Shown here one piece after another: positions 3,588-62,029 of a DNA stretch of 64,000 nt. This stretch comes from a virus. The stretch is from UHGV virus genome UHGV-0175639. One strand, written 5' to 3'. Positions within the stretch are counted from its first letter, which is position 1. Every line of letters begins with the position of its first letter. The position numbers and the translations under genes are program-made. The notes under the pieces were generated by a model. That model did not search any database. It was not told where the DNA came from and was given only the letters and a program-made list of their open reading frames with translations.

Positions 3588-3997
3588 TCGTCATCCTCAT
3601 CCGAGTCATCCTCATCACAGGATGAGAGTAGTGGGTTAGTCATTCGCCCTACTTGAGTGGCGTAGCCACGCCGACAGAGATTGCGCAGCACACTGTATAT
3701 TTCGAACATCTCGGTTCGTTCATCGCCAACATCAAGCTCAGATGCTATAGCGTGGCATTCAGTCGCGAGAGCCGATATTTTCTGAAATAACTCTGCATTA
3801 TTCACTGTTCGACTCCTGCGGCGTTCTGGTAGTGGCATCCAGTGTGTGACATTGCTAATCAGACCATATTCATTAGTTTGAGGATGGTTGCCGTTATCGT
3901 CTCCGTATTTAAGACTCTCCATAAAGCCATAATGCCTATCACCATTAACGCTCACAAAGCCGTAATAAGCAGGTATAACTGAATCGCCACGGATAAT

Positions 3998-4810
3998 CTA
4001 GACACTTCCGAGCCGTTGATAATACTGGTTTTCATATTCTGTCGGTGACATCTGTTCGCTAGAACCATGCCGACGCTTACTGTTATAAAACATTTCGATG
4101 TAATCAAAAATATCACTGCGGGCTTCTTCCCGCGTTCCGTAGATCTTTTTCTTTATCCGTTCACGTTTCAACAACTGGAAAAAACTTTCTGCAACCGCAT
4201 TATCATGGCAGTTACCGCGACGGCTCATGCTACCCTCCAGGCCGTGTGATTTCAGGAACGACTGCCACTCATGGCTTGTGTACTGACTGCCCTGATCCGA
4301 ATGAACCAGCACCTGTTTTTCGGGATTACGCCGCCATACAGCCATCAGCAGTGCGTTCAGGACAATGTCCTTTGTCATCCGGGATTGCATGGACCAGCCG
4401 ATAATTTTGCGTGAGAACAGATCAACAACAACGGCAAGATACAGCCAGCCTTCGTGGGTCCTGATGTAGGTTATGTCCGTTACCCAACGCTCATCAGGAG
4501 CATCCGGATTGAACTGTCGCTGGAGCCTGTTGGGTGACACGATACTGGCCTCGCCTTTACGTGCCCGCGGGCTTCGGTATCCGACCTGAGCCTTTATTCC
4601 GACACGTTTCATCAGTCTCCAGACTCTGTTTACTCCGCACTGTTGCCCGCTGTCACGCAAATCCAGATGGATTTTGCGATAACCATAGACGCATCCCGAT
4701 TCCAGCCAGAACTGTTTAATCTGTCCTGTCAGTCTCAGGTCTGCCTGATGGCGTTGTGAATGCGGCTGCTGAAGCCAGGCGTAAAAACCACTGGGATGAA
4801 CATCCAGCAC
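3998..4810 (-). CDS. IS3-family transposase OrfB (DDE integrase core)
   Basis: 270 aa; WVTDITYIRT...VHSDQGSQYTS...CHDNAVAESFF signature of IS3 OrfB. Confidence 0.85.
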   Translation of the reverse strand: MLDVHPSGFYAWLQQPHSQRHQADLRLTGQIKQFWLESGCVYGYRKIHLDLRDSGQQCGVNRVWRLMKRVGIKAQVGYRSPRARKGEASIVSPNRLQRQFNPDAPDERWVTDITYIRTHEGWLYLAVVVDLFSRKIIGWSMQSRMTKDIVLNALLMAVWRRNPEKQVLVHSDQGSQYTSHEWQSFLKSHGLEGSMSRRGNCHDNAVAESFFQLLKRERIKKKIYGTREEARSDIFDYIEMFYNSKRRHGSSEQMSPTEYENQYYQRLGSV

Positions 4811-8685: not shown

Positions 8686-8746
8686 GTGTTTTTCTCTTAT
8701 CGTTTAGTAACTACATTCTTACATAAATTAAGTAAGTATTTACCTA

Positions 8747-14980: not shown

Positions 14981-15163
14981 CTTCTTTCTCGATAGGTAAG
15001 TATATACCTATTTTTGCATTTGATTTTATGTCTGGCAATCAAATAAAACGCGCCAGAAATGCAAACGAGAAGCTCTCTGGCGCGTTTTTGTGGTGCTGGG
15101 TATGTGATTGGCTTACCCAGTACTATAAAGCTCTCTATGGGCTTTATTTTAAGTAGGGGAACG

Positions 15164-15973
15164 TCATCCAATAGTGTACTCCGCGACAAACTTCTTAACG
15201 ATCGGTGATTCTTCGTTCAATGTTAGATTTCCACCGTCTCTAACGGCAATTCCTGTCGCTGGAAATACAGCCATCATTTGCCCAGCCTGAGTTGACGCAG
15301 TGTTAAGCGGATACGGTTTTTCTGGATTGCTCATTAAAGCAATCTTAATACTATTACTTGTAGCCTTCTTTTCTGTGAGAAGGTGTCTCATGGAAATTAC
15401 CGTGTAAACACTAATATCTGGACCTCCGCTAAACCAATTAAGAAGGTTTAATATCTTATCCTTTGCTTTGACAGGCGCGTTATCGTAAGCGTCTAAGAAA
15501 ATATCTTTTTCTAAGCCCGCTTTATTGAAAAACGAATCATCTTTATCACTTAAAGTAAAACGAGGACCTCTTGCAGTACGAGCTTTTTTATTTGTATTGC
15601 TATCATTTGACTGTTGAACTTTTAATTCATCATTAACCTCAACACACTCTTCAACCTCAATAAATCCCAATTGTTCTGGCTCGTTTTCGGCAGCTTCAAC
15701 ACTTTCAGCGTTAATTACGTTTATAGGCTCATGCGCTAACTCCAACTCATTTAAAGTAGAGCTGAAATCACCTGCTTTTTCTTCATTGAACAGTTCTTCG
15801 GCAACATCATCAGAACTCATGGCTACGCCAGCATCTAGGCCGAGCAGCAGATCGTCAATATCATCAGTATTTTCAACCTGTGCAGCTTTTTTTACTGGTT
15901 CATCAAGTGATTGCAACATGGCTGTCAGCTCGTCCAGATCATCATTTGTCATTACATTTTCAACCGAACTCAT
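15164..15973 (-). CDS. acidic protein, 269 aa (strongly D/E-rich N-terminal half)
   Basis: Long runs of D/E in the first 130 aa. Confidence 0.5.
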   Translation of the reverse strand: MSSVENVMTNDDLDELTAMLQSLDEPVKKAAQVENTDDIDDLLLGLDAGVAMSSDDVAEELFNEEKAGDFSSTLNELELAHEPINVINAESVEAAENEPEQLGFIEVEECVEVNDELKVQQSNDSNTNKKARTARGPRFTLSDKDDSFFNKAGLEKDIFLDAYDNAPVKAKDKILNLLNWFSGGPDISVYTVISMRHLLTEKKATSNSIKIALMSNPEKPYPLNTASTQAGQMMAVFPATGIAVRDGGNLTLNEESPIVKKFVAEYTIG

Positions 15974-16133
15974 GTAAGTCTCCTTCTGTTTGGTTACATT
16001 TGCGTTTCGATGGCTGCATTTTGACTAAACCTATCAGGCGGAAAAGTATTAAATACAGGCAGGAAATGATTGAAAGGCGACTGTTCTTTAAAAGAAAGCC
16101 TGCTTCAAACTCTCTTTAAAGCAGGCTTTTGTT

Positions 16134-28031: not shown

Positions 28032-29147
28032 TCACACAGCCTCCGAACTCTCCGCTTCGGTGAGGATTTCCTGACACAAAATATCCAACTTGCTTAGATC
28101 AAATCCGCCGTCAGTATCGTGGACAATCTTGCAATAAGCAGATACCGACTCTCCCAGGCTATCGATTTTGCTGGTTTCCGTTGTGCTTGCTGTCCCTTCC
28201 ATCATTGATGACTTACGGATGAAGTTGCACACGACACCTTTTGCACCCATTGTTTTGAGGATGTTCTGGTACTTAATGCCTTCTTCATCGTTCTCAATTA
28301 CGGCGCGGAAACGCACGTAGTTGCCGCGAATTTGGTCATCGGCAACATAATCTTCCAGGTTAATGAATTTAGGCGCACTGGTTTCGTAGTGACTGAAACT
28401 GCCGTCCGGGTTTACGATCATGTAACCAGCCAGAGATCCAACATCTCCCCAATTTTGATGGGTCAGCGCACCGACACTGATAACTCCAGGAATGACCTCT
28501 TTATGGTTGTGGTAATGCCCACTAAGCACGAGACGAAAGCCGATATCCTTTAACTCCTGCGCATCGATACCGACGTCAGGCATTGTTGGAATGGCTTTGT
28601 TAATGGATGTATGGATAACAACATCATGATTATCACCTTCTACGCTCTTACGTAATGCTTTCAGATCGCTGATAAGCTCTGCATGATTGTTACGCCAGCT
28701 AATCAGGTGGACAGTCACATCACCAATTTTTATTGAGTGTGGGCGCTTGCCACATACGATTACCACGCCGATAGAACTCAGCGATGCTGCTGCGTTGGCG
28801 CTATATAATGAATCGTTGGTTTCAAGATCGTGATTACCGGCCAGCATTACTACTGTCAGATCAAGCTCGTTGATAATCCACTTGTACGTTTCAGTTACGT
28901 AATGCAAAACAGAAGGGGACACAGTTCCTCGGACGTGAAATGTATCACCGGCAACCAACATGTACTTACAACCGGCCTTCTTCATGGCGATGGCTGCTTC
29001 TTTCGTTGCTTCCAACTGTATTTCAAGTCTGGAGTTAAGCCCCTCAGCGTTCGTCGTGGAGAACGCATCCCATTTGTGGTAGTGGCAGTCAGAAATGACG
29101 CCGTATGGCAAAGTCATGTGTTTTTCCTTTGTGGTTATTTGATACAA
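28032..29147 (-). CDS. SbcD/Mre11-like nuclease
   Basis: Calcineurin-like phosphoesterase motifs (DCHYH, AGDTFH, GNHD). Confidence 0.85.
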   Translation of the reverse strand: MYQITTKEKHMTLPYGVISDCHYHKWDAFSTTNAEGLNSRLEIQLEATKEAAIAMKKAGCKYMLVAGDTFHVRGTVSPSVLHYVTETYKWIINELDLTVVMLAGNHDLETNDSLYSANAAASLSSIGVVIVCGKRPHSIKIGDVTVHLISWRNNHAELISDLKALRKSVEGDNHDVVIHTSINKAIPTMPDVGIDAQELKDIGFRLVLSGHYHNHKEVIPGVISVGALTHQNWGDVGSLAGYMIVNPDGSFSHYETSAPKFINLEDYVADDQIRGNYVRFRAVIENDEEGIKYQNILKTMGAKGVVCNFIRKSSMMEGTASTTETSKIDSLGESVSAYCKIVHDTDGGFDLSKLDILCQEILTEAESSEAV

Positions 29148-29438
29148 ATCTTAAGCTTGCTCGAGAGGTGAGCAACCAACACAGCACGGCACAGAAGAAC
29201 ATCAACAGGCATAGTATTACAAAATAAATAGGTAAGTGAATACCTACCAAAATTGTTGAATGGATTGCTTACAAGGCGGCTAGAGTTTCATTGAAGTGCT
29301 TAGATGTATATGGTAGGCAAAAGTCTCATCGTTACATATGAATGAACTATCTCATGGGTCATGTATCATTTGATATTTTTATTATCAACAATTACCGTAT
29401 AAGAGGAATTTTCCAAATTGAAAAAGGATTGATTATCA

Positions 29439-29696
29439 ATGGCTATTGATGAAAGAAATATTGTTGTTGGTGGATTGTACAAGACCCATACGAATCAAGA
29501 ACGGGTCGTTCTAGAAATAAAAGATGATGAAGTGAAATACGCTCCTCGAGGTGGAAATGTAGAAAATAAATTTGACCATATGCAAAAAGCCAAATTGATC
29601 ACATTTGCAGGAGCATGTTCAGAAAAAATTAAAGATTTACCCTCCGATGAATTTAATAAAATTCGACAACTATTTGTGGATAGAAAACTTATTTAA
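29439..29696 (+). CDS. hypothetical protein, 85 aa; orphan plus-strand gene
   Basis: AAGGA RBS, own downstream terminator, AT-rich by eye. Confidence 0.45.
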   Translation: MAIDERNIVVGGLYKTHTNQERVVLEIKDDEVKYAPRGGNVENKFDHMQKAKLITFAGACSEKIKDLPSDEFNKIRQLFVDRKLI

Positions 29697-29787
29697 ATAG
29701 TTGTATTAGTTTTGAGGGTTTGTCTCTTAAAGGATTACCATTACTTGGATGAGTAAATTTTAAACAGGAAAAGTTCTAAAAGCCAAT

Positions 29788-29818
29788 GAGCGCCTATGTA
29801 ACGAGCGCTCTTTTTTTG
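29788..29818. terminator. hairpin GAGCG...CGCTC followed by T7
   Basis: Inverted repeat plus T-run after the 85-aa gene. Confidence 0.6.
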
Positions 29819-29843
29819 TTTGTGGATGGGCCTACTAAACCAT

Positions 29844-30497
29844 TTAAATCGTGTCGGAGGGCTTTTTACGCGCGTTACGCGCTGCGTTTATGCTTATGAC
29901 GCCAGCTTTTGGACGTGGGTCAACAAGGTTAAGCTCTTCTTCACTGTGGTATTCGAGGTCGAACTCACGTTTTACATGTCTGATGTAGATTGCGGTGAGC
30001 AGGCTATCTTTGGTTAGGAAGTGTCCGTAGGATTTGCGGATCACTTCTTCTACCTTCTCGATTTTCTCACCCCCCATACAGAGATGATTAAACCGGCTGT
30101 GTTTTCGCAACATTTCGTCTACTGGACCTGAGTAAACCTTGTCTACTTTCCCAAAACGGATGATTTTCCCTGTGTCTGCGGATACAAGGCAAATCAGCTT
30201 GTCTGGTGATAAACGATCTCGCCACGTCACACCTGAACGGAGTGTGTTGAAGTAGGGGGCATCCAATCCGATGATCGGTTTACGAAATGCGAGCAATGGA
30301 ACGTACCTGATGCAACTGTTTAAATGAAAATTCACACCAGCCTTATCAAGTTTAATTCTGGTTTCGTAGATCGGGCACTTCGCCGCTATACCGCAGATGT
30401 CACAAAGCAACTTCTGCTTATTCAGGTTGGAATTTGATTCGATAGTGTAGGAGCCGTCTTCAAGACGACGAACCCAGCGCGTGCGTTTTAGATCCAT
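29844..30497 (-). CDS. hypothetical protein, 217 aa
   Basis: ORF only. Confidence 0.5.
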   Translation of the reverse strand: MDLKRTRWVRRLEDGSYTIESNSNLNKQKLLCDICGIAAKCPIYETRIKLDKAGVNFHLNSCIRYVPLLAFRKPIIGLDAPYFNTLRSGVTWRDRLSPDKLICLVSADTGKIIRFGKVDKVYSGPVDEMLRKHSRFNHLCMGGEKIEKVEEVIRKSYGHFLTKDSLLTAIYIRHVKREFDLEYHSEEELNLVDPRPKAGVISINAARNARKKPSDTI

Positions 30498-30697: not shown

Positions 30698-30798
30698 TAT
30701 GCTACCAGCGGTAATTGATAGTCTGTCAACGGTTCGCCGTATGCTGCCAACTGTTTTTGGTATGCTGCCAGCGGCAAATCAAGTATGCTGTCAGCGGT
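30698..30798. repeat. iteron array upstream of repA (four copies, consensus TATGCTNNCAGCGGT)
   Basis: Copies at 30698, 30740 (degenerate), 30761, 30784. Confidence 0.8.
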
Positions 30799-30817
30799 TG
30801 AATGACAAAGGTGTCCA

Positions 30818-31913
30818 CATGTCCACAAAAAATAAAAAAGGTAAAAATAACAAAGAAGTAGAAGATAATCTCGACAACTTTGAAGAAGGTTCCCTTGAAT
30901 TGTACACAGGGGAACTTGTCCCTAATAGCAACAATACAGTCCAACCAATTGCGTTGATGCGGCTGGGGTTGTTCGTGCCCACGCTCAAGGGGACAAAATA
31001 CAGCAAGCGTAATAAGCCAAATGAGATCGATGCTTCAAAGGAGCTTGTTCAGCTCGAAGTAGCCCGTTCTGAAGGTTATTCCGATATCAAGATAACCGGT
31101 CCTCGTCTCGACATGGATCATGATTTCAAAACGTGGGTGGGCGTTGTGCGTTCGCTGGCAGAATACGGCGAACCTAACGGTCGTGTCGAGTTAAGCATCA
31201 CGAAATTTGCGAAGTTTTGTGGCTATCCATCGTCACAGATCCGCAAAACACTCCGCGACCGGCTTACAAACAGTCTTTTGAAGATCATGCGTACAACTCT
31301 GTCTTTTCAGAGAACGTATGAAGAAAAGAATGTCGACGGCTCTAACAAGATCTCGCTTCTGATGGTGCACCTCATCAATAGCGTGGACTACAACGAGCAG
31401 AAAGATACGGTGGTGTTCTATGCAGAACCGAAGCTGGCCGAACTATATCGCTTTGACCATAAGGTTCTTTTGCAGTTAAAGGTTATCAATAAGCTACCAC
31501 GCAAAGAAACAGCACAGGCTCTGTACACCTTCATCGAAAGTCTTCCAACCAAGCCTGCGCCGGTATCGCTTGCTCGATTACGTGCGCGACTCAATTTGAG
31601 TAGCAGGAATGTCAGCTCGCAGAATCAGACTATACGTAACGGCTTAAAAGCTCTCCAAGATTTGGGCTATCTCGAATACAGCGAGATTAAGCGAGGGCGG
31701 TCGATCTATATCCAGATTCACAGCCGCAATCCAAAACTCAAAGTCGCACCGCCAAAACCTGAAGACATCGAACCCAAAAAACCAGATGAGAAAGCTGGGG
31801 AAATTGATGCCAAACAGAACATTATCAACAAGATAACCGAACTTTCGCAGAATTTGACGCCTGAAAATATCAAGATGATTGAGATCCTTTCCAATAGTCT
31901 CAAACTGCTTTGA
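30818..31913 (+). CDS. repA: RepA-like replication initiator (iteron-binding)
   Basis: 365 aa from MSTKNKKGK; flanked on both sides by iterons; start of the longer tracked ORF rejected because it overlaps the iterons. Confidence 0.7.
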
Positions 31914-46980: not shown

Positions 46981-47367
46981 ATGTCTGACAACAAGATTGA
47001 ATTTATAGAAAGTCGCTATGCTGCTTTTATCGCAGGGCTGATTGAATCCTCACCTATGAGTCAGGCCCAAATAGCCAGACTTATTGGTTATAAAAATGCC
47101 AACAACCTTTCTTTAATTAAAAGTGGCAAAATTCCTTTGCCTATCGATAAGGTTCGTCCGTTGGCGCTGGCGCTGGGTATTGAGCCAAGTCGTCTTATGA
47201 TGATGGTGCTGGAAGAACGCCAACCTGAACTCGCAGCATTTTTATACAAAGAAGGCACCGCTCCTCTTAACGAGGACGAAAAACAGGTTCTTGCTGCATA
47301 TAACGAGCGATTCGGTAAAGAGAAAGGCGCATCACAAAAGGTTGTTGAGGCCATAAAGTCTCTATGA
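46981..47367 (+). CDS. HTH (Cro/C1-type) transcriptional regulator
   Basis: SQAQIARLIGYKNANNLSLIKSG helix-turn-helix; convergent with the recombinase. Confidence 0.6.
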   Translation: MSDNKIEFIESRYAAFIAGLIESSPMSQAQIARLIGYKNANNLSLIKSGKIPLPIDKVRPLALALGIEPSRLMMMVLEERQPELAAFLYKEGTAPLNEDEKQVLAAYNERFGKEKGASQKVVEAIKSL

Positions 47368-48465
47368 AAAATTTACACGAATAAGCTCTGTTGATAGACG
47401 ATCTCCCTTGAATTTGTGGTCAATTTCGTCTAAATCCGGTTGCTCTACGATTGATGCGATGTACGTCGAGAAACTTTCTAAGGCGTCTCGCATCTCGTCC
47501 ATATAATCGTGCCGGTCGTAGACTCGATCTATCCCCTCAAGACTGTGGTTCATGATTTTGCGTGATACCTCCTGGCTTATGCCTAATGCTGGGAAGTAAC
47601 TACGCGCAGTACGGCGCAAGTCTCGGGGTGTAAATGGCTCAAGCTCCATCAGTTCTGGTCGTTCCAGGATACGACGTAATGCCTGGGCTATTGCCACTTT
47701 AGACATAGGAAGGTCTTTCCCGATTTTTTTATTCGAAGGCACGAGCCACTGGCTGCCTTTACCGTATTCGAACAACTCTTCAATACATGTGCGCATTAAT
47801 GTGCTTAAAGGCAGCGAATGCTCACGGGCAGATTTGTTCCTCTTGCCTTGATTCCAAACCCCACGCTTAAGATTGAACTCACTTTTTTTAGCCCGCAGTA
47901 CTTCGTCAGGTCGTCTTGCGGATACAAGACACAGCCTGGCCGCCCATTTTGTACCAGCGCACACATTGAAGTAGTCCCATATATTCCAGAACACCCATAC
48001 CTCTGCGTCGGTCAGCTTCCGCTCGCGAGGTGTGGGCTTTGCGCCACCGGCAACTTTGTTTAGTGACATATCGTTTAACGGTGACACGTCTATCATCCCC
48101 TGGAAGGCGCACCAGCTAAGGAACTGCTTCATCAGAGAGAAAACGCGGCGGCCCATAACAATTTTGCCATCCAGTATTAGTGGGTTGACCAGTTGGTTCA
48201 CCATGAACCTATTAATGTCACTTACTTTTACATCGGCAATGTGCGGCAAAACATGTATCAAAATACAATGAACAGCGATCTCTGGCCGACGTCTTGTTAT
48301 CAGCAGAGATAAGCGAGTGAATAACATGAATGCGTCCGAGAATCTCATGTCATTGCTGACCTGCGAGATCATAACGGCCTGCATTTGAGATGCTCTTTCG
48401 AGATACTCAATCGCCTCTTTTGAGGTGTTCTCCGCAGCGCGTGCTCTGTCAAAGCTATTTTTCAT
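47362..48465 (-). CDS. tyrosine site-specific recombinase
   Basis: Conserved Arg and LRRT box and C-terminal VYDRHDY tyrosine region. Confidence 0.8.
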   Translation of the reverse strand: MKNSFDRARAAENTSKEAIEYLERASQMQAVMISQVSNDMRFSDAFMLFTRLSLLITRRRPEIAVHCILIHVLPHIADVKVSDINRFMVNQLVNPLILDGKIVMGRRVFSLMKQFLSWCAFQGMIDVSPLNDMSLNKVAGGAKPTPRERKLTDAEVWVFWNIWDYFNVCAGTKWAARLCLVSARRPDEVLRAKKSEFNLKRGVWNQGKRNKSAREHSLPLSTLMRTCIEELFEYGKGSQWLVPSNKKIGKDLPMSKVAIAQALRRILERPELMELEPFTPRDLRRTARSYFPALGISQEVSRKIMNHSLEGIDRVYDRHDYMDEMRDALESFSTYIASIVEQPDLDEIDHKFKGDRLSTELIRVNFS

Positions 48466-48563: not shown

Positions 48564-48596
48564 AATGATTCCATACATAGTAGGTATGGAATCATT
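48564..48596. repeat. candidate recombination core site AATGATTCCATAC-ATAGTAG-GTATGGAATCATT
   Basis: Perfect 13-bp inverted repeats around a 7-bp spacer, about 100 bp upstream of the recombinase start; half-site copies at 51259-51271 and 52281-52293. Confidence 0.6.
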
Positions 48597-48675
48597 TTGA
48601 CGTTGTTTTTTGAATTTTAAGGGAAATGGGAGTGAGTTTGGTGGGAATAAAAACGGCTCCTGTGAGCCGTTAAAA

Positions 48676-48921
48676 TCAGAGGGTGCTGACGTATGCAGCC
48701 AGTTCTGTGTATCCGCCAATCGGCTGGCCATCGATCAGCACCTGGGGGATAGTCTCTACCGGTTTACCAACAATTTCACTTAGTTTTTCCTTGTTGATAC
48801 CGGCAGTGGTGATGTCGATGTACTCATAATCACCGTAGCCATGTCCCTTTAGTTGCTTCGCCAGCTCGACCGCACGTTTGCAGTATGAGCAGTTATCTCG
48901 TCCGTAGATAGTGATCGTCAT
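48676..48921 (-). CDS. glutaredoxin-like protein (NrdH/Grx)
   Basis: 81 aa from MTITIYGRDNCSYCKRA; CxxC thioredoxin-fold motif; GAGG RBS. Confidence 0.7.
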   Translation of the reverse strand: MTITIYGRDNCSYCKRAVELAKQLKGHGYGDYEYIDITTAGINKEKLSEIVGKPVETIPQVLIDGQPIGGYTELAAYVSTL

Positions 48922-49095
48922 TGTTACCTCATAGAATTGATATGCAACTTTACTTACAAAGAAGATAGGTATGTGCATACTTATCTTTGCAGTCTGCATT
49001 ATAAAGCTATTAAAGCCTCGATCAATCTATTAATTAAGGCATTGTTTGGTTAACATTAGCCTAATAATTTATAGTTAGTAGAGTGAAATACATAC

Positions 49096-50358
49096 ATGCC
49101 TTTTTTAATTTTCATTATTATACTACTGCTCACCGTTATTTTTTGGGATTGGGTTGTTTTAAATGGTCAAACTGTTGGAACATTGGCTACAGCATTTGCT
49201 TTTATAGCAACAGCATGGAATGCCTACGAAGCGAGAAAAAGTGCAAAAGCAGCTTTTTCAGCCCTTCAATTAACAACTGAATCATTGTTCGAAATGCGAA
49301 AGAGTGCATTTAAACAATGGTTTGATTCCTTATTAAATCAACATGATGCGTTATGTCTTCTTGCAAAACAAATTATCGATAAACACAAAATTAATTTAAA
49401 CAGCGATGAGTTACATAGACTCTATTACCCATTGGTAAAACAGCATGAGGTAATACAGTATGTGAAGCATATTATTAATATATTTGAGTATGTGGATAGT
49501 TCATTTTATATTGATGGGGAATGTCTCAAGGAAAAAAGAGCGTATGTATCACAATTAATTTTTAAAATCCCACCTCAGATGAAGTTGATCATTGCTATCT
49601 TTGGATTAAAAATCGATTATTGTGAACATATTAATTCGGAAAAACTGTGTTGTTTATTGAATAAATATGATTTTTTCAATGATGAAATATTTTTTGATGA
49701 TGCTTATTCAAATATGCCTTATCTGGATACATTCATAAACCTTAGATTCAATAAAATATTCAAATCTCGAATGATAAATTATTTTGATAATATCATTAAA
49801 AGTTATTATGTTCCATCGGACGTTAAAAGGGACTGGATGTTTCGACGCCCACAGCTCGTACCGTCGGTTCTTATGAATTATAAAACTCCTTGTTCTCCTA
49901 TAATTAATGATTACTTTGAGAAGTTGCCTTTACATGTAAGAAACTACTTTGAGGAACAACTTAAAACCGCGAATGATAGAGTTACTCATTTTGACGTTTA
50001 CATCCCACGCCTTATTGGTTGTTCAATCGTGCAACATTACGAAGATGTGCCTTCCGAAAAAAACAGGTTAAATGACAGGAATGATGTAATAGCTATGGCT
50101 GAAGATTACATCGAGAAAAGAAAATCTAATCAACTAGATTACATACTTGAAGATATATACTTCAAGAGTGACGAAGATATAATCCCAGGCCACCATTTGA
50201 TTGTGGCATTTGATGACTATGAATTTAAATTATCACTCATTAAGATAAATGAGAATAAAGATAGCGATAATCTTTTAAATCGAATTTATACTGAATCCAG
50301 TAGCATGGTTAAAGAATATAAGCGCGAAATATTAAAACTGGGCGACTATGTAAAGTAA
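49096..50358 (+). CDS. membrane-anchored protein, 420 aa, unknown function
   Basis: Two N-terminal TM helices then a long soluble domain; conspicuously AT-rich by eye; own terminator. Confidence 0.6.
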   Translation: MPFLIFIIILLLTVIFWDWVVLNGQTVGTLATAFAFIATAWNAYEARKSAKAAFSALQLTTESLFEMRKSAFKQWFDSLLNQHDALCLLAKQIIDKHKINLNSDELHRLYYPLVKQHEVIQYVKHIINIFEYVDSSFYIDGECLKEKRAYVSQLIFKIPPQMKLIIAIFGLKIDYCEHINSEKLCCLLNKYDFFNDEIFFDDAYSNMPYLDTFINLRFNKIFKSRMINYFDNIIKSYYVPSDVKRDWMFRRPQLVPSVLMNYKTPCSPIINDYFEKLPLHVRNYFEEQLKTANDRVTHFDVYIPRLIGCSIVQHYEDVPSEKNRLNDRNDVIAMAEDYIEKRKSNQLDYILEDIYFKSDEDIIPGHHLIVAFDDYEFKLSLIKINENKDSDNLLNRIYTESSSMVKEYKREILKLGDYVK

Positions 50359-50376
50359 ATTGCACTGTTCAACAAA

Positions 50377-50397
50377 AAAGGGGCCGAAGCCCCTTTG
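50377..50397. terminator. hairpin AAAGGGGC-CGAA-GCCCCTTTG with flanking A and T runs
   Basis: Textbook intrinsic terminator, usable in both directions. Confidence 0.65.
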
Positions 50398-50470
50398 AAT
50401 TTTGCGCTGAAAAAAGTGTTGCTAAGATGTTAGCAAGCTATGGTTAAGAACGTCTGCCGTAATTATCTAT

Positions 50471-50548
50471 CACAGCGTTGAGCGGTCTGGTTTATGTTAG
50501 CGGAGTCTTAATCGAGTTGATTAAAAGGCCAAACCGCTCAACGCTGTG
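50471..50548. other. long inverted repeat (about 20-bp stem CACAGCGTTGAGCGGTCTGG, 38-nt loop) abutting the tRNA-Ser 3' end
   Basis: Arms at 50471-50490 and 50529-50548; related stem at 51341-51464 on the other side of the tRNA cluster. Confidence 0.45.
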
Positions 50549-50549
50549 T

Positions 50550-50636
50550 CTGGCGGAGAGTAATGGAATCGAACCATCATCGTTTGCACAATGGAACGGT
50601 TTTCAAGACCGCTTGAGCACCATGCTCCCTACTCTC
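50550..50636 (-). tRNA. tRNA-Ser (anticodon UGA), long variable arm, CCA encoded
   Basis: Manual fold: acceptor GGAGAGU/ACUCUCC, anticodon loop CUUGAAA, T-loop GGTTCGATTCC. Confidence 0.65.
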
Positions 50637-50827
50637 CAGCTATTGTGATGGTCGGTACTGAACTCCGACACAGGGTTGTAGCAAGCCCCGCAAAGCGCGC
50701 ACTACTGTAGTTGCGGCACATCAGCCTGTGCATTCATCACAACGGTAAGAGCACTGGTCTGACTCTATCGATTTACGGCCTTGTGGGTCAGTATCGCCGA
50801 TTCGCCCAATGCTCTTACCTGTTGTGT

Positions 50828-50903
50828 TGGTGCCGGTTAACGGACTTGAACCGCTGGCCATTCGCTTACAAAGCGACTGCTCTACCAACTGAGCTAAACC
50901 GGC
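50828..50903 (-). tRNA. tRNA-Thr (anticodon UGU), CCA encoded
   Basis: Manual fold: acceptor GCCGGUU/AACCGGC, D-arm AGCTCAGTTGGTAGAGC, anticodon loop UUUGUAA. Confidence 0.6.
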
Positions 50904-50907
50904 AATT

Positions 50908-50994
50908 TGGTGGGGAGTGATGGAGTCGAACCACCCGAGTCGCCATGACAGTAGATTTACAGTCTACACCGCTACCTCTACGGACTAACTCCCC
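50908..50994 (-). tRNA. tRNA-Tyr (anticodon GUA), long variable arm, CCA encoded
   Basis: Manual fold: acceptor GGGGAGU/ACUCCCC, anticodon stem-loop GUAGA-CUGUAAA-UCUAC. Confidence 0.6.
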
Positions 50995-50999
50995 TAAAT

Positions 51000-51074
51000 T
51001 GGCGATGGTGGGTGGATTCGAACCACCGACCAGTTGGTTAACAGCCAACTGCTCTACCGCTGAGCTACACCATC
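51000..51074 (-). tRNA. tRNA-Asn (anticodon GUU), CCA encoded
   Basis: Manual fold: acceptor GAUGGUG/CACCAUC, anticodon stem-loop GUUGG-CUGUUAA-CCAAC, T-loop GGTTCGAATCC. Confidence 0.65.
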
Positions 51075-51852
51075 AATTCAGCACTGCCAGTATTTATTAC
51101 TCAACAGTGCCAATCGCGACGGTTTAGTTTCTGCCAGGAAACGCACCGCTACTTGCACTTTTCGTTAGTGCCAGACGCTTTCGACTTCGCTCAATAGTAG
51201 AAGGCAAAATCTTTAAGTAGATGATGTTTCTGAGGACAGCACCTACTTTGTAATTTATACTATGTGATGTATGGAATCATTTGTTGTGAAAACAGGCACC
51301 AATGGCAACAGTGGTTAAACCTACACAACAATCCCGTCTTCACAACGTTGAGGCCACTACTCCGATTGAATGTTTGCCCAACATGTTACATATCAACGTT
51401 CGCCGGTATCTCTGTGAATAGAACCTTAGAATTGATAAAAATGTAATGGCCTCAACGTTGTGTGCTGGCTAACCATACCAGCCGGGCTACGTCGCCGCTT
51501 TTTAACCCAGTATAAACGACATAATTGAACAAAATGACGTAACAGGATGGGCGGTCAGTGGCTAAGAATCCGGGAGTCATATGGAGTTGAAAATATACCA
51601 ACCGCCCATTCTGTTACTTCATCGGAGGGAACATGAATGTTCCCTCCTGCGTTCTGCAATCACACTCGCTCAGTGTGTCCCATTTCGGTAACGAGGCTGG
51701 AAACTGACCTCGCTGGTGTTTGGCTTATTAGGCTACTGCCAGATAGACTTCTTCGTTTGCACTTGTATTTAAGTTCAAACAGTCGCGTCTCAACGAAAAC
51801 AAAGTCATCTTATACACAAAAGATAAGTAAGTAAATACTTATCAATATGTTT

Positions 51853-52143
51853 TTATTCGGTTGTGACTTTTTTGATCAAGGCCACTCTACGACTAGGTGT
51901 TCTTGTAATGGTGGCAGTGAATCGTTTCGCTTGGATAGTAATGGTTTCGTTCTCCTTAAGTTGCCCGTAGCGAATTTCCACCAGGGTGCCAAGACGCCAC
52001 AGACCATCATCGATACGTTTATGACTAGCAAATTTAATCAGCAACAGTTTTACGACTAACTGACCTACGTAAAAGGCGAATGCGACTCCGGCCGCTAAGA
52101 AATAGGTGGCCAACCACCAGTTCCAAGAAGTCAAATTGATCAT
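51853..52143 (-). CDS. small membrane protein, 96 aa
   Basis: N-terminal TM helix; ATGA coupling with the upstream mini-gene. Confidence 0.45.
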   Translation of the reverse strand: MINLTSWNWWLATYFLAAGVAFAFYVGQLVVKLLLIKFASHKRIDDGLWRLGTLVEIRYGQLKENETITIQAKRFTATITRTPSRRVALIKKVTTE

Positions 52144-52292
52144 TTTTTCACCTTTGTTTCATGAACTACCCGATACACACGCTTTCCGATGCACAGTGTT
52201 TTGGTTTTAAGTTCCTGCTTAATTAAATCACGACAGATGCCGAAGCCGATAAGGAAGCCACCCATAAAAGCTAATGAGATGTATGGAATCAT
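52140..52292 (-). CDS. small membrane protein, 50 aa
   Basis: MIPYISLAFMGGFLIGFGIC...; translationally coupled on both sides. Confidence 0.35.
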   Translation of the reverse strand: MIPYISLAFMGGFLIGFGICRDLIKQELKTKTLCIGKRVYRVVHETKVKK

Positions 52293-52504
52293 TTTAACAC
52301 TCCTGATTCTACTAATTGCTGTAGCAATACTTTCCCTTTATCAGTTAACTGGTAGTTGGCCGAACACCACGTTTCAGAAACGTTTGCAACCAACCCTAAA
52401 CGCTCTAACTTAGCTCGCGTTTTAGGCTTCCAGTACTCAGGGAACTCCGGCCACTTACTGATTTCATGAAGCGTTTCCTTCTCCCGTTTACTTAATACGA
52501 TCAT
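52289..52504 (-). CDS. hypothetical protein, 71 aa
   Basis: ORF coupled to neighbours. Confidence 0.45.
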   Translation of the reverse strand: MIVLSKREKETLHEISKWPEFPEYWKPKTRAKLERLGLVANVSETWCSANYQLTDKGKVLLQQLVESGVLK

Positions 52505-55835: not shown

Positions 55836-56068
55836 GTTGGCTTCCCTTTATTTATATTTATCGCAGGTATTAGTTAATCAAAACACGAGCAGTGCCACAA
55901 TAATTAAATGGCGTACTATTTCTTATGGTTATTAGTTTCCTAGTAACTTTACCGACCATAAACTAAATCAACAAAGCTGACATATTAACTAAATTTAAGT
56001 ACCCTTTTTCGCACACTTGACGCTTGCCGCGTCTAAACTGTTCATCCTATATCAACAGAACAAAAAAT

Positions 56069-57214
56069 ATGAAATACATAAAATCTTCATCGTTGCTGGC
56101 ATTAACTTTGCTTTTTAGCTCTGGATTCGTTAACGCAGACAATAAACAAACGCTGATAGAAGCCGCTACCGCAGGGGATACCGCAGCACAAAGTGAGTTA
56201 GGGACAAATTATTTTGATGGTATCAATGGTTTTGATAAGGATGTAGTTGAGGCCAAGAAGTGGATTGATCTCGCTGCAGAAAAGGGAGACAAAGTAGCAT
56301 ATTATGCACTTGGGGTTATGTACACATTTGGCGAGGGTGTAGATAAAGACCTAAATAAAGCTGTTGAGTACTACAAACTTGCGGGGGATGCTCGTGAAGG
56401 TAGAGCCTACAACAATCTTGGTGCTATTTATCAAAAGGGGTTGCTTGGTAAAGTAGATCATGCACTCGCCATTAAATACTTCAAACTAGCCTCTGATGCC
56501 GGGTATGTTAAAGCAACTTCAGTTCTTGGGGCGTATTACCAATATGGTAAAGGCGTTAAAAAGAATTATAAAAAGGCTTTTACTTATTACAAAAAGGCGG
56601 CAGACCAAGGCAGTTCAGAAGCTATGATAGGATTAGGAATACTATACGATGATGGGTTAGGCGTTAAACGCAATGATGCAGAAGCAGTTAAGTGGTATAA
56701 AAAGGCAGCGGAACTTGGAAACGCCGACGCCATAACCAATCTTGGCATTATGTATGAGAATGGGGAAGGTGTAAAAAAGGACTATAAAAAAGCAGCCGAC
56801 CTTTATCAGACTGCTTGCGATAAAGGAGAAAAAAGAGGCTGCGATTACATTGCAGAACTGAAAGAAAGCGGCAAATATCGAGCGCCGGCTTCCAAAGCCA
56901 AAACAAAATCCGCCACCCAGCGACTTATTGCTAAATCCATTGATAAGGGCGTTAACGCTACATTTACCTGGCAGGGTGATGATGCTACCTTCACCGCTAA
57001 TGATGGCAAAGTTGACTGCACATTCCTGAAGGATTTTTCAGAGAAAGGAGGCAATCTGGCTACCTCGTTTGTTTGCACAGATAACGTTCAAATCATCCTG
57101 AAGCAATTCAGAGATACCAAAAATGCCTACCTCGCGGTAATGACTGACAACTTCAATACTGAAGTTAAATCATTTTCGGTCAATGTGTATGTGACTAATA
57201 CTGGTTCAAACTAA
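56069..57214 (+). CDS. secreted Sel1-like repeat protein
   Basis: Signal peptide MKYIKSSSLLALTLLFSSGFVNA; at least six Sel1-type repeats followed by a C-terminal domain of about 120 aa; AT-rich by eye. Confidence 0.7.
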   Translation: MKYIKSSSLLALTLLFSSGFVNADNKQTLIEAATAGDTAAQSELGTNYFDGINGFDKDVVEAKKWIDLAAEKGDKVAYYALGVMYTFGEGVDKDLNKAVEYYKLAGDAREGRAYNNLGAIYQKGLLGKVDHALAIKYFKLASDAGYVKATSVLGAYYQYGKGVKKNYKKAFTYYKKAADQGSSEAMIGLGILYDDGLGVKRNDAEAVKWYKKAAELGNADAITNLGIMYENGEGVKKDYKKAADLYQTACDKGEKRGCDYIAELKESGKYRAPASKAKTKSATQRLIAKSIDKGVNATFTWQGDDATFTANDGKVDCTFLKDFSEKGGNLATSFVCTDNVQIILKQFRDTKNAYLAVMTDNFNTEVKSFSVNVYVTNTGSN

Positions 57215-60790: not shown

Positions 60791-61987
60791 TTAAACATCT
60801 TTTAGAAAGCCTGGAAACCAATGTTTCATGATATACCTAAAATGTGCTCTAGTTGGTTCAAAAACCTGTCTAGATACCAGCGCTCCATCAGGATGATTCT
60901 GAACAGACTGTTCTTTTTCCATATCGTAAAAATTATGAGTTATCTCTGGGGGGAAGAAAATATTTCTGTCCAGTGGCACTGTCGCAAAAGGATTGTAGTA
61001 AATATGAAGGCCGTCAAAGTGCGTCTCTTCATGAGCAGTGGAATGACAAACTACAATATCCGCACCAGTGACTTCGTTATTTAAAAAATGCCGATATGTA
61101 GTGATGAAATGATCAGGTCCTATCCTTTGTGTGTGCTTTCCCTCGTTTTTCATCCCTTCATTGGCGATGAAATCATTCACATCAATGGCTCGATATCGTG
61201 TTGACCTTACATATCTACCGATACCGCTTTGAACCACGGCTTTTCCAAAAGTGCCGGTGGTGGAGAAAATAACCGCACTTATTTCTTTATATGAGTCGTT
61301 AGTAAATATACCTAATGGAATTTCAACGTCTTCATTCTTTTTGATTGAGGTAACTTTAGTTTGGCTGCCAGTCACCAAATTTCTGGTGGTAGGTTCCTCA
61401 ATGCCAAACAACACTCGATTGATGATTGTGTTATTTTGAGACAATGATAAATCGGAGTCAAAGGGTGCAAGCGCCAGAACAAACGGCTTATTAACTACAT
61501 GAGACATCGTAGAGTACGGGAATTTTTTGCCATTAACTCCTGTAAAAAGATCATGTTTGTCTTTGATTTTTCCGATTAATTTTAGCGTTGATTGATGTTT
61601 GAATTTTGATTCGCTAAAAAGAACACCTGCAGGTGGATTATGTGGCCGATCTGATATCACAGCTTCGACGTTAAACTGGTAGCCTGACGGTGTAGTAACA
61701 CAGAAATCGGGACTGTCTTTTGTGTAGTCGACAGAATAATCGAGACGAATAAACATTTCGTTCAGATACAATTCCCATAAGGCGGAATTGAAGGTTGTCT
61801 GAAACTCTTTAACGAATTTAGTCTGCTCACCGCTACGCTCCAGTAACCCACGCCCCCACGACTGTATCACTTCTCTTACTGGAGCATATGTATTATCTTG
61901 ATAAATCTGTTTAAAAGATTCGTGCAGCTTGTTTTTTGCTATTTTGGTTGAGAACAAATCCATTATTAGCCTCACTAACCAGTTCAA
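60791..61987 (-). CDS. hypothetical protein, 398 aa (island gene 2)
   Basis: No recognised domain; AT-rich by eye; start may be the internal MDLFSTK. Confidence 0.5.
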   Translation of the reverse strand: MNWLVRLIMDLFSTKIAKNKLHESFKQIYQDNTYAPVREVIQSWGRGLLERSGEQTKFVKEFQTTFNSALWELYLNEMFIRLDYSVDYTKDSPDFCVTTPSGYQFNVEAVISDRPHNPPAGVLFSESKFKHQSTLKLIGKIKDKHDLFTGVNGKKFPYSTMSHVVNKPFVLALAPFDSDLSLSQNNTIINRVLFGIEEPTTRNLVTGSQTKVTSIKKNEDVEIPLGIFTNDSYKEISAVIFSTTGTFGKAVVQSGIGRYVRSTRYRAIDVNDFIANEGMKNEGKHTQRIGPDHFITTYRHFLNNEVTGADIVVCHSTAHEETHFDGLHIYYNPFATVPLDRNIFFPPEITHNFYDMEKEQSVQNHPDGALVSRQVFEPTRAHFRYIMKHWFPGFLKDV

Positions 61988-62029
61988 TAAGAAAAGCGCC
62001 CAACATAATCATTTGAGGAAAGTCTGGAG

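Follow-up and report, generated by a model that had tools for sequence, protein, structure and literature searches.

We uncovered a very divergent relative of the AbiC/AbiP (putAbiC) superfamily of phage abortive-infection (Abi) proteins in a 64,000-nucleotide stretch of the virus genome UHGV-0175639 (hereinafter the window, i.e., that stretch at its full length). It is encoded on the plus strand at 49096-50358 by an open reading frame (ORF) of 420 codons plus a stop, and the bearing element can be identified by its sequence similarities as an SSU5-like phage-plasmid of E. coli. Because this AbiC/AbiP relative lies in a swap-able cargo slot, the most likely interpretation is that it is an anti-phage gene: we consider it reasonably probable that it codes for a single-gene, inner-membrane-anchored, Abi-type anti-phage protein, which is borne as exchangeable cargo by SSU5-like phage-plasmids. 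This proposal draws on distant homology, architecture and genomic context. The original prediction, that the gene might be single-gene membrane-anchored Abi or superinfection exclusion (Sie) cargo, gains support from the putAbiC homology and the polymorphic slot described below, from the lack of any confident homology to a structural or housekeeping phage function, and from the patchy presence of the gene among related elements.

The protein is tied to the superfamily through intermediates. A scan against PHROGs recovered phrog_18168 alone, which is listed as of “unknown function”, and a word-indexed search of 5.8 billion clustered proteins returned 7 clusters, all from Escherichia. An exhaustive HMMER search of 1.84 billion proteins with a profile of 7 close relatives recovered 67 representatives, from which 52 full-length members were taken for the family alignment. 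The Pfam domain PF16872 (putAbiC, “Putative phage abortive infection protein”) is matched by 39 of these 52, while the PADLOC models for AbiC and AbiP match eight (best 1.3e-6) and five (weakly), respectively. Among ten members tested individually, six scored 32-42 bits on PF16872, for which the gathering cut-off is 22 bits. An hhalign comparison of the alignment of the window clade with 12 canonical family members, including those six, gave a probability of 99.9% (E=9.9e-32) over 346 columns, extending from the second transmembrane (TM) helix almost to the C-terminus. Further, BLASTP directly linked the window protein (E=3e-18) to WP_161569778, a protein encoded by the Pantoea agglomerans plasmid NZ_CP143523.1, which is annotated by PGAP as a “putative phage abortive infection protein” and scores 45.4 bits on PF16872. 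Thus, the window protein is joined by homology to proteins that themselves pass the PF16872 cut-off, and the soluble domain, in which no motif had previously been recognized, turns out to contain a degenerate putAbiC core at residues ~113-200. The AbiC/AbiP or putAbiC superfamily is itself known; what is new is a strongly divergent variant missed by PADLOC, Pfam and NCBIfam.

The relationship to the lactococcal prototype is more remote. The AbiC homologue of the L. lactis plasmid p275A, which is given as AbiC in PMC6458302, matches the PADLOC AbiC model over its full length (4e-133) and passes PF16872 at 32 bits. Through the wide family profile, residues 192-250 of the lactococcal protein align with residues 119-177 of the window protein; hence, this link is best read as one at the superfamily level through the putAbiC core and not as orthology. 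Two similar names need to be kept apart here. The papers on “AbiC” in Gram-negative bacteria that the literature search brought up were set aside: they refer to Abi_C/pfam14355, a HEPN domain at the C-terminus of AbiJ that bears no relation to PF16872. Neither the window protein nor the family members match PF14355 (the HEPN Rx4-6H domain of AbiJ). The names AbiC (PF16872, the lactococcal Prf) and Abi_C (pfam14355) are interchanged in some papers and tables, as in a table of Tn7 cargo that gives “AbiC (pfam14355)”, and such naming can mislead annotation transfer.

The protein can be divided into the following regions, all on the plus strand:

49096-49164: TM1 (residues 1-23), with Kyte-Doolittle values up to 2.83 and a helix in the AlphaFold2 (AF2) model.
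49174-49305: TM2 with a basic juxtamembrane helix (residues 27-70), including the invariant ATAWNAYEARKSAKAA; its invariant columns give it the highest conservation in the protein.
49432-49695: the degenerate putAbiC core (residues 113-200), QHEVIQYVKHIINIFEYVD...EKRAYVSQLIFKIPPQMKLIIAIFGL...LLNKYDFFNDEIFF, aligning to the PF16872 region of members that pass the cut-off.
49696-50355: the variable helical C-terminal half (residues 201-420), with low identity, raised ratios of nonsynonymous to synonymous substitution rates (dN/dS), and AF2 confidence (predicted local distance difference test, pLDDT) of ~85-93 for residues 270-410.

The two N-terminal TM helices originally predicted are upheld, albeit unequally: TM1 is strongly hydrophobic, whereas TM2 (residues ~27-44) is marginal by Kyte-Doolittle in the window allele (1.45), although the homologous segments are clear TM segments that pass the threshold in most relatives. 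TM1 has no positively charged N-terminal region, which sets it apart from a Sec signal peptide. The segment following TM2 carries a net charge of +3; by the positive-inside rule, this would place the large C-terminal domain in the cytoplasm, with the two TM helices forming a hairpin in the inner membrane. The AF2 model built from a more diverse 12-sequence alignment (pLDDT 80.7, predicted TM-score, pTM, 0.69) displays two short N-terminal helices, a very long helix running on from TM2 (residues 24-98), and a domain that is helical for the most part and includes a small beta element; none of the structure libraries searched returned a significant fold match. Conservation is unevenly distributed along the protein, with the mean pairwise identity within the slot clade falling from 65% in TM2 and the juxtamembrane helix to 41% in the core and 20% in the C-terminal half. 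The C-terminal half (residues 201-420) is accordingly a candidate specificity or sensor region.

This organization closely parallels that of the characterized Abi proteins. AbiC has two TM helices and AbiP one, their extramembrane domains superimpose, no fold can be assigned to either, and the two are placed together as “AbiC/P” in a 2026 review (PMC13064643). The window protein has the same combination of an N-terminal TM anchor and a helical domain without an assignable fold, and its family includes both 2-TM and 1-TM forms. With AbiC it shares its single-gene nature, the two N-terminal TM helices, the helical domain, the PF16872 core, low GC and plasmid carriage. It differs from AbiC in that the core lies at residues 113-200 of 420 rather than 190-245 of 338, the C-terminal halves are unrelated, and only ~60 residues can be aligned, solely via the wider family profile; the capsid phenotype is known for the lactococcal protein only. 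AbiP resembles the family in being a membrane-anchored single-gene Abi protein; single-TM forms occur in the family too, and the Pantoea homologue WP_161569778, like the five members noted above, matches PADLOC AbiP weakly. However, AbiP has one TM helix and binds RNA and single-stranded DNA, whereas a TM hairpin and a soluble domain of slightly acidic character distinguish the window protein, which also has no direct match to the AbiP model. A further parallel is with the canonical proteobacterial PF16872 family (~420-470 residues, e.g., WP_161569778), which the window protein resembles over nearly its full length, in size and in its N-terminal TM anchor(s); the window clade and this family have in common the juxtamembrane AWxAxEARxSAxAA motif, the hydrophobic putAbiC core, low GC and plasmid or mobile contexts. 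Unlike the canonical family, the window clade falls under the Pfam cut-off and the PADLOC thresholds, has its polar motif replaced, and is tied to one slot of SSU5-like phage-plasmids.

The ORF at 49096-50358 is a real and constrained gene. It opens at the first in-frame ATG, and an ORF of 1263 nt is improbable by chance in DNA of 31% GC. All five alleles compared for dN/dS are intact, with values of 0.20-0.32 over dS ranging from 0.04 to ~1.6; regionally, the ratio is 0.3-0.5 in the C-terminal half as against ~0.2 in the N-terminal part. One might still take it for an ORF without function, either decaying or carried along as a hitch-hiker in foreign AT-rich DNA, given its anomalous GC and the lack of both a direct database family and a clear promoter. 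This is exceedingly improbable and effectively refuted by the invariant motifs, the occurrence of homologues in 134 plasmids, and the persistence of intact alleles to dS ~1.6 at dN/dS of 0.2-0.3; the confident AF2 model (pLDDT 80.7) also speaks against it.

The element itself can be placed with some precision. The region is 95-99.7% identical to many non-mobilizable E. coli plasmids of ~105-115 kb, with the best match, NZ_CP035843.1 (strain TW10722), reaching 99.9% for the gene together with its flanks. The Escherichia phages CMS-2020a and Cyrano are close to it as well, and the Salmonella phage SSU5 is more distantly similar; these similarities are the grounds for calling it an SSU5-like phage-plasmid. 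A tblastn search of PLSDB recovered homologues of the protein in 134 plasmids, from Escherichia (69), Klebsiella (35), Enterobacter (18), Salmonella (6), Pantoea (3) and Citrobacter (2), whereas a tblastn search of 50,697 phage records, including those of SSU5, Cyrano and CMS-2020a, did not find the gene. Only 39 of the 336 matching complete E. coli genomes carry it. It is thus an accessory gene, and not one universally conserved in related phage-plasmids.

The genomic context in which the gene is found is as follows:

47362-48465, minus strand: tyrosine recombinase gene (PF00589 in orthologous genes).
48676-48921, minus strand: grxA, coding for a glutaredoxin, the conserved left flank; 92-98% nucleotide identity between elements with slot genes of 32-55% identity.
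49096-50358, plus strand: the AbiC/AbiP-superfamily (putAbiC-like) gene, as supported by the ORF, intact alleles, profile search and hhalign.
50367-50404, no assigned strand: GC-rich hairpin of the backbone (AAAGGGGCCGAAGCCCCTTT) with T-runs on both sides, the right border of the slot and probably a bidirectional terminator.
50551-51074, minus strand: cluster of four tRNA genes, Ser(UGA), Thr(UGU), Tyr(GUA) and Asn(GUU), the conserved right flank.

The gene does lie between the recombinase and the tRNA genes, as first noticed, with grxA also intervening on the recombinase side; the suspected cargo position can now be narrowed to a discrete polymorphic slot between grxA and the backbone hairpin. 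At the same site, other elements encode alleles with 55% (P0005), 32% (P0007 and P0077) and 30% (P0015) identity to the window protein. In near-identical and more distant SSU5-type backbones alike, these follow grxA (or grxA-phoH) on the opposite strand and adjoin the hairpin that precedes the tRNA-ligase block. In the comparison with the P0007-bearing element, the flanks are 98.5% and 97-98.7% identical and the slot proteins 32%, with similarity being lost just past the start of grxA and regained at 50371. Other elements have unrelated genes in the slot, namely Gp49 (PF13876), a minus-strand gene whose translation is coupled to that of grxA, or a plus-strand orphan of 302 residues with a GC of 0.29, which forms an allelic series of its own (99, 59, 56 and 40% identity). 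The AbiC-like, Gp49 and 302-residue occupants are mutually exclusive alternatives. Among 5,426 complete E. coli genomes, Gp49 is found in 77, the window allele group in 39 and the 302-residue family in 30, while other AbiC-like alleles occur in 11 further genomes (12 matches, one shared with the window allele group); all the occupant-bearing loci in these genomes are plasmid-borne. The conserved flanks, the exclusive unrelated occupants and the presence/absence polymorphism are those of a variable slot. In organization only, this recalls the P2/P4 defence hotspots (PMC13586616), where a fixed site with conserved flanks likewise houses exclusive, unrelated, AT-rich single genes and diverged alleles; the SSU5-like slot belongs to another type of element, and its occupants are at most candidate defence genes.

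The hairpin, which the original prediction took for the gene's own textbook terminator, is instead part of the backbone. Its 50377-50396 segment scores as a minus-strand terminator, and 15 of the 19 loci compared, namely all those that span the junction, have it unchanged, whatever the occupant (Gp49, the 302-residue gene or the distant alleles). We conclude that it is probably a bidirectional terminator of the backbone.

The 302-residue orphan deserves mention in its own right. In Escherichia phage CMS-2020a it occupies the same slot (3683-4591 of locus L010, plus strand), ending 4 nt before the hairpin; it contains an Rx4H (HEPN-like) motif, “ELLRHTIVHNSG”, and has relatives on ~100-110 kb E. 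coli contigs. Pfam, PADLOC and a wide protein search provided no annotation for it. It is possibly another unrecognised defence gene.

This context also bears on the idea that the gene serves the lifestyle of the phage-plasmid itself, as a membrane tether or regulator for a replication and nucleotide-metabolism module, or as an accessory of lysis or its timing. The neighbourhood is suggestive in this respect, coding for the Pol III alpha subunit, a CobT/AAA protein, GrxA, PhoH (in some relatives), a ligase, a primase and DnaB; moreover, the gene is of long standing at this position across the SSU5 supergroup, and adjoins an operator-like palindrome of the backbone. Yet, most close relatives, including SSU5, Cyrano and CMS-2020a as deposited as phages, lack the gene, and others have it replaced by unrelated genes; it is oriented opposite to the module, deviates from it in composition, and has its homologues in an Abi family. 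Such a role is hence quite unlikely.

The composition of the gene fits well with cargo of the Abi type. Its AT-richness, part of the original prediction, is confirmed: its GC of 0.317 (0.287 at third codon positions, GC3) compares with 0.44-0.50 in the neighbouring genes, and its kilobase has the lowest GC of the window (0.308 vs ~0.46). Relative to the replicon, the window allele stands at 0.317 vs 0.458, four other alleles at 0.31-0.33 vs 0.43-0.46, and the lactococcal AbiC homologue at 0.26 vs 0.36; all the AbiC-like alleles are 10-14 GC points under their surroundings, as is the lactococcal AbiC. Because every one of them is GC-poor, AT-richness appears to be a trait of the family, and recent import as its sole cause could be rejected on the same grounds. 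The lactococcal abi genes in general have a G+C content markedly under that of the host replicon, and the window gene too is well below its own. The earlier description, according to which a 45-kb minus-strand array contains no other large plus-strand gene, needs correction, as plus-strand ORFs of 404 residues (30699-31913) and 396 residues (56024-57214) are present, and the AbiC-like gene is the sole large plus-strand gene between those two.

The region upstream of the gene contains the following features:

48965-48984, no assigned strand: perfect copy of a 20-bp backbone palindrome (ATAGGTA-N6-TACYTAT) that precedes the start of grxA by 44 bp and marks the left edge of the allele-variable segment.
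48985-49095, no assigned strand: AT-rich upstream region (GC 0.30), which allele alignments show to be swapped along with the gene.
48998-49025, minus strand: sigma-70-like promoter, TTGATC-16-TATAAT (10/12), directed toward grxA and divergent from the gene.

As the 48985-49095 segment changes along with the gene, the putative promoter and ribosome-binding site must lie within it. Around the start codon there is a weak AGAG..GA Shine-Dalgarno sequence and a conserved CATACATGCC. Weak translation signals and a membrane-inserting product would also suit a plasmid-addiction or toxic membrane protein that stabilizes the element and is paired with an antitoxin not yet recognised, for example a small RNA; toxin genes (e.g., YafO) do occur in the adjacent slot of relatives, and Abi and toxin-antitoxin systems overlap generally. 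We nevertheless regard this as very unlikely: neither a partner ORF, nor an Rfam RNA, nor a suitable repeat structure was found in or beside the gene module, which led us to reject a partner gene or RNA antitoxin, and the gene is often missing from otherwise similar plasmids that are stably maintained.

The 20-bp palindrome upstream of grxA is one of many in the window. The pattern ~ATAGGTAAGTACTTACCTAT yields 44 strand matches when up to 3 mismatches are allowed, where 6.3 +/- 3.2 would be expected and shuffles reach 15 at most. There are 13 good copies of 20 bp, at 8728, 12779, 14992, 24546, 29228, 33218, 35171, 38691, 48965, 51823, 55338, 60606 and 60734; all 13 are intergenic, mostly 2-130 bp upstream of the starts of minus-strand genes. 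The copy by grxA is kept upstream of the other plus-strand cargo types and is absent in the Gp49-type arrangement. This looks like a candidate operator or promoter motif of the phage-plasmid backbone.

Several observations have to be set against the interpretation of the AbiC-like gene as an anti-phage system. One is the loss of the polar residues that are invariant in the canonical family, where they are found in the motifs GHxxISPYMRxLYHLLK, RSxIxND and FFEHA; the slot clade has QHEVIQYVKHIINIFE, IFKIPPQ and FFNDE, respectively, in their stead. In the window protein the replacements comprise H116Q, S120I, P121Q, R124K, H128N and R155I, followed by S156F, N160P, D161Q, N169F, E195N and H196D, so that by the conserved polar core residues alone it would fall outside PF16872. 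The positions that are kept are mostly those of the hydrophobic core (Y122, Y150, I158, A167, L188, F193, F194 and F199), along with the juxtamembrane AWxAxEARxSAxAA. In direct searches the protein has no match in Pfam (even at E<=10), PADLOC or NCBIfam; the clade members P0007, from the same slot, and P0014 fail the PF16872 cut-off with 18 and 19.2 bits, in a clade of ~30% identity, and P0005, P0015 and P0077 have no PF16872 match. The profile of the window clade shows no direct similarity to the lactococcal AbiC homologue (0.2% probability), and that of the whole family reaches it with E=9.9e-5 and 58% probability over 59 columns of the core only. As for function, our search of the literature turned up no phenotypic test of a PF16872 protein from Gram-negative bacteria; an AbiC-like protein of Lactococcus with 38% identity conferred no resistance to the phages tried (PMC11381338), and the action of AbiC itself is established only as a reduced production of capsid protein (PMC13064643). 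The slightly acidic character of the soluble domain (net -5) disfavours AbiP-like binding of nucleic acids, no plus-strand consensus sigma-70 promoter was found upstream of the gene, and the alternative occupants of the slot are without known defence function. Since most of the invariant polar residues are replaced, the mechanism of the slot clade may differ from that of the canonical family, and its effector step is probably non-catalytic.

With these points taken into account, an Abi-type role could be envisaged as follows. The TM hairpin would anchor the protein in the inner membrane and leave all of the helical domain on the cytoplasmic side, where the fast-evolving C-terminal half might recognise a component made by the infecting phage. 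The conserved TM2, the basic juxtamembrane helix and the putAbiC core would then deliver the effect, conceivably a membrane-level insult or a block to the production of late phage proteins of the kind reported for lactococcal AbiC, such that few or no progeny would be released. An abortive-infection-type mechanism of this kind would protect the population of plasmid-carrying cells from other phages. Of the characterized relatives, lactococcal AbiC (Prf, from pTN20; Durmaz 1992, Moineau 1993) reduces the major capsid protein and leaves DNA replication unaffected, whereas AbiP affects replication and the switch of early transcripts (PMC13064643). A bolder version of the proposal, which we think rather improbable, is that the grxA-hairpin slot is a hypervariable “allelic immunity locus” with a new, non-catalytic, membrane-proximal mechanism acting through TM2 and the ATAWNAYEARKSAKAA helix, wherein C-terminal alleles might recognise different phage triggers or rival kin phage-plasmids.

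The membrane anchoring and the allelic diversity could also be accounted for by superinfection or kin exclusion, i.e., a membrane protein that blocks the entry or establishment of DNA, especially that of competing SSU5-like phage-plasmids, with the alleles representing different exclusion specificities. We hold this to be unlikely. The inner-membrane location, with its conserved TM2 and juxtamembrane segment, would suit it, as would the diverged alleles at one site of near-identical backbones in phage-plasmids of Escherichia, Klebsiella, Enterobacter, Salmonella and Citrobacter, and the near-restriction of the family in Enterobacterales to the SSU5-like plasmid type. On the other hand, the only characterized relatives, AbiC and AbiP, act after injection (PMC13064643); most of the protein is predicted to be cytoplasmic, while many Sie proteins act at the periplasmic face; and canonical relatives are also found on unrelated plasmids (a Pantoea MOBF plasmid and a ParA/ProQ contig). 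Pfam, PHROGs, PADLOC and NCBIfam revealed no match to known Sie families (e.g., T4 Imm/Sp, P22 SieA and lactococcal Sie2009).

Clinical Escherichia, Klebsiella, Enterobacter and Salmonella commonly harbour SSU5-group phage-plasmids, which carry resistance genes near this locus. A clade related to AbiC/AbiP, present in 134 plasmids, is invisible to current annotation, and because PADLOC, Pfam and NCBIfam miss it, defence inventories of SSU5-like elements are likely to be underestimates; a recent defence survey of these phage-plasmids made with DefenseFinder lists, in its accessible part, no AbiC-type system for the SSU5 supergroup (10.1101/2025.09.12.675607). To specialists, a defence-like moron in such a slot would come as little surprise. 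If the Abi-type protein is active, it would offer a handle in E. coli on the AbiC/AbiP mechanism, a problem that has stood for 30 years, as well as a natural series of alleles, from 99% down to 30% identical in isogenic backbones, with which the determinants of specificity could be mapped; if the slot were indeed an allelic immunity locus, it would constitute the first genetically tractable E. coli model for that mechanism. Should the gene prove not to be a defence gene, the slot would still be a well-defined recombination hotspot for the exchange of cargo beside a tRNA cluster.

Further variable sites are seen in the vicinity. The window has nothing in a second cargo slot that separates the recombinase from grxA (~48597-48675); in relatives (6450-7478 of L001, 2140-3168 of L010 and 2234-2788 of L009) this slot contains genes for a YafO-family toxin (PF13957) and a 202-residue protein or, in phage Cyrano, an unrelated gene of 184 residues. 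In the more distant backbone L011 the same slot has two copies of YafO and a microcin-like ORF. We entertained and rejected the possibility that 184-residue genes found in two different slots are one mobile cassette, as they are unrelated. Adjoining this second slot, at 48564-48596, is a near-perfect palindrome, AATGATTCCATAC-ATATTAG-GTATGGAATCATT, whose 13-bp inverted arms and 7-bp spacer recall the arrangement of lox/dif sites. It is found ~100 bp upstream of where the tyrosine recombinase starts, and similarity to the relatives with the YafO insertion breaks there. It is a candidate core site of the tyrosine recombinase.

Toward the tRNA cluster, an inverted repeat occupies 50471-50548, directly 3′ of the minus-strand tRNA-Ser gene; its 20-bp arms are 95% complementary and enclose a loop of 38 nt. 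It might act in processing or termination, or as a site of recombination. In relatives that bear the AbiC-like gene (NZ_CP047004.1, NZ_MT773673.1, NZ_MT773674.1, NZ_OQ029475.1 and NZ_CP104844.1), the region from the recombinase to the ligase contains ISEcp1-blaCTX-M insertions of ~3.1 kb (CTX-M-55, -64, -179 or -199), at the equivalent of ~50400-52500; judging from the coordinates, they appear to lie downstream of the AbiC-like gene. Insertions near tRNA loci are similarly remarked upon in the accessible portion of the above survey (10.1101/2025.09.12.675607). The recombinase-to-ligase region is thus a hot area for clinically relevant acquisitions.

A position between a 137-residue gene and the primase is also variable. 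In the window it is occupied by the 396-residue ORF at 56024-57214 on the plus strand, with equivalents at 15052-16197 of L001, 8538-9791 of L005 and 11306-12472 of L011, and nothing in L003; L001, with ~98% flank identity to the window, has a Sel1-repeat protein there, and other relatives have unrelated proteins of 388-417 residues, which suggests a further cargo slot. Finally, the kilobases at 29001-30000, 15001-16000 and 61001-62000 are also of low GC (0.38-0.40 vs ~0.46), the first of them with a positive GC skew, and may mark other foreign or cargo segments.

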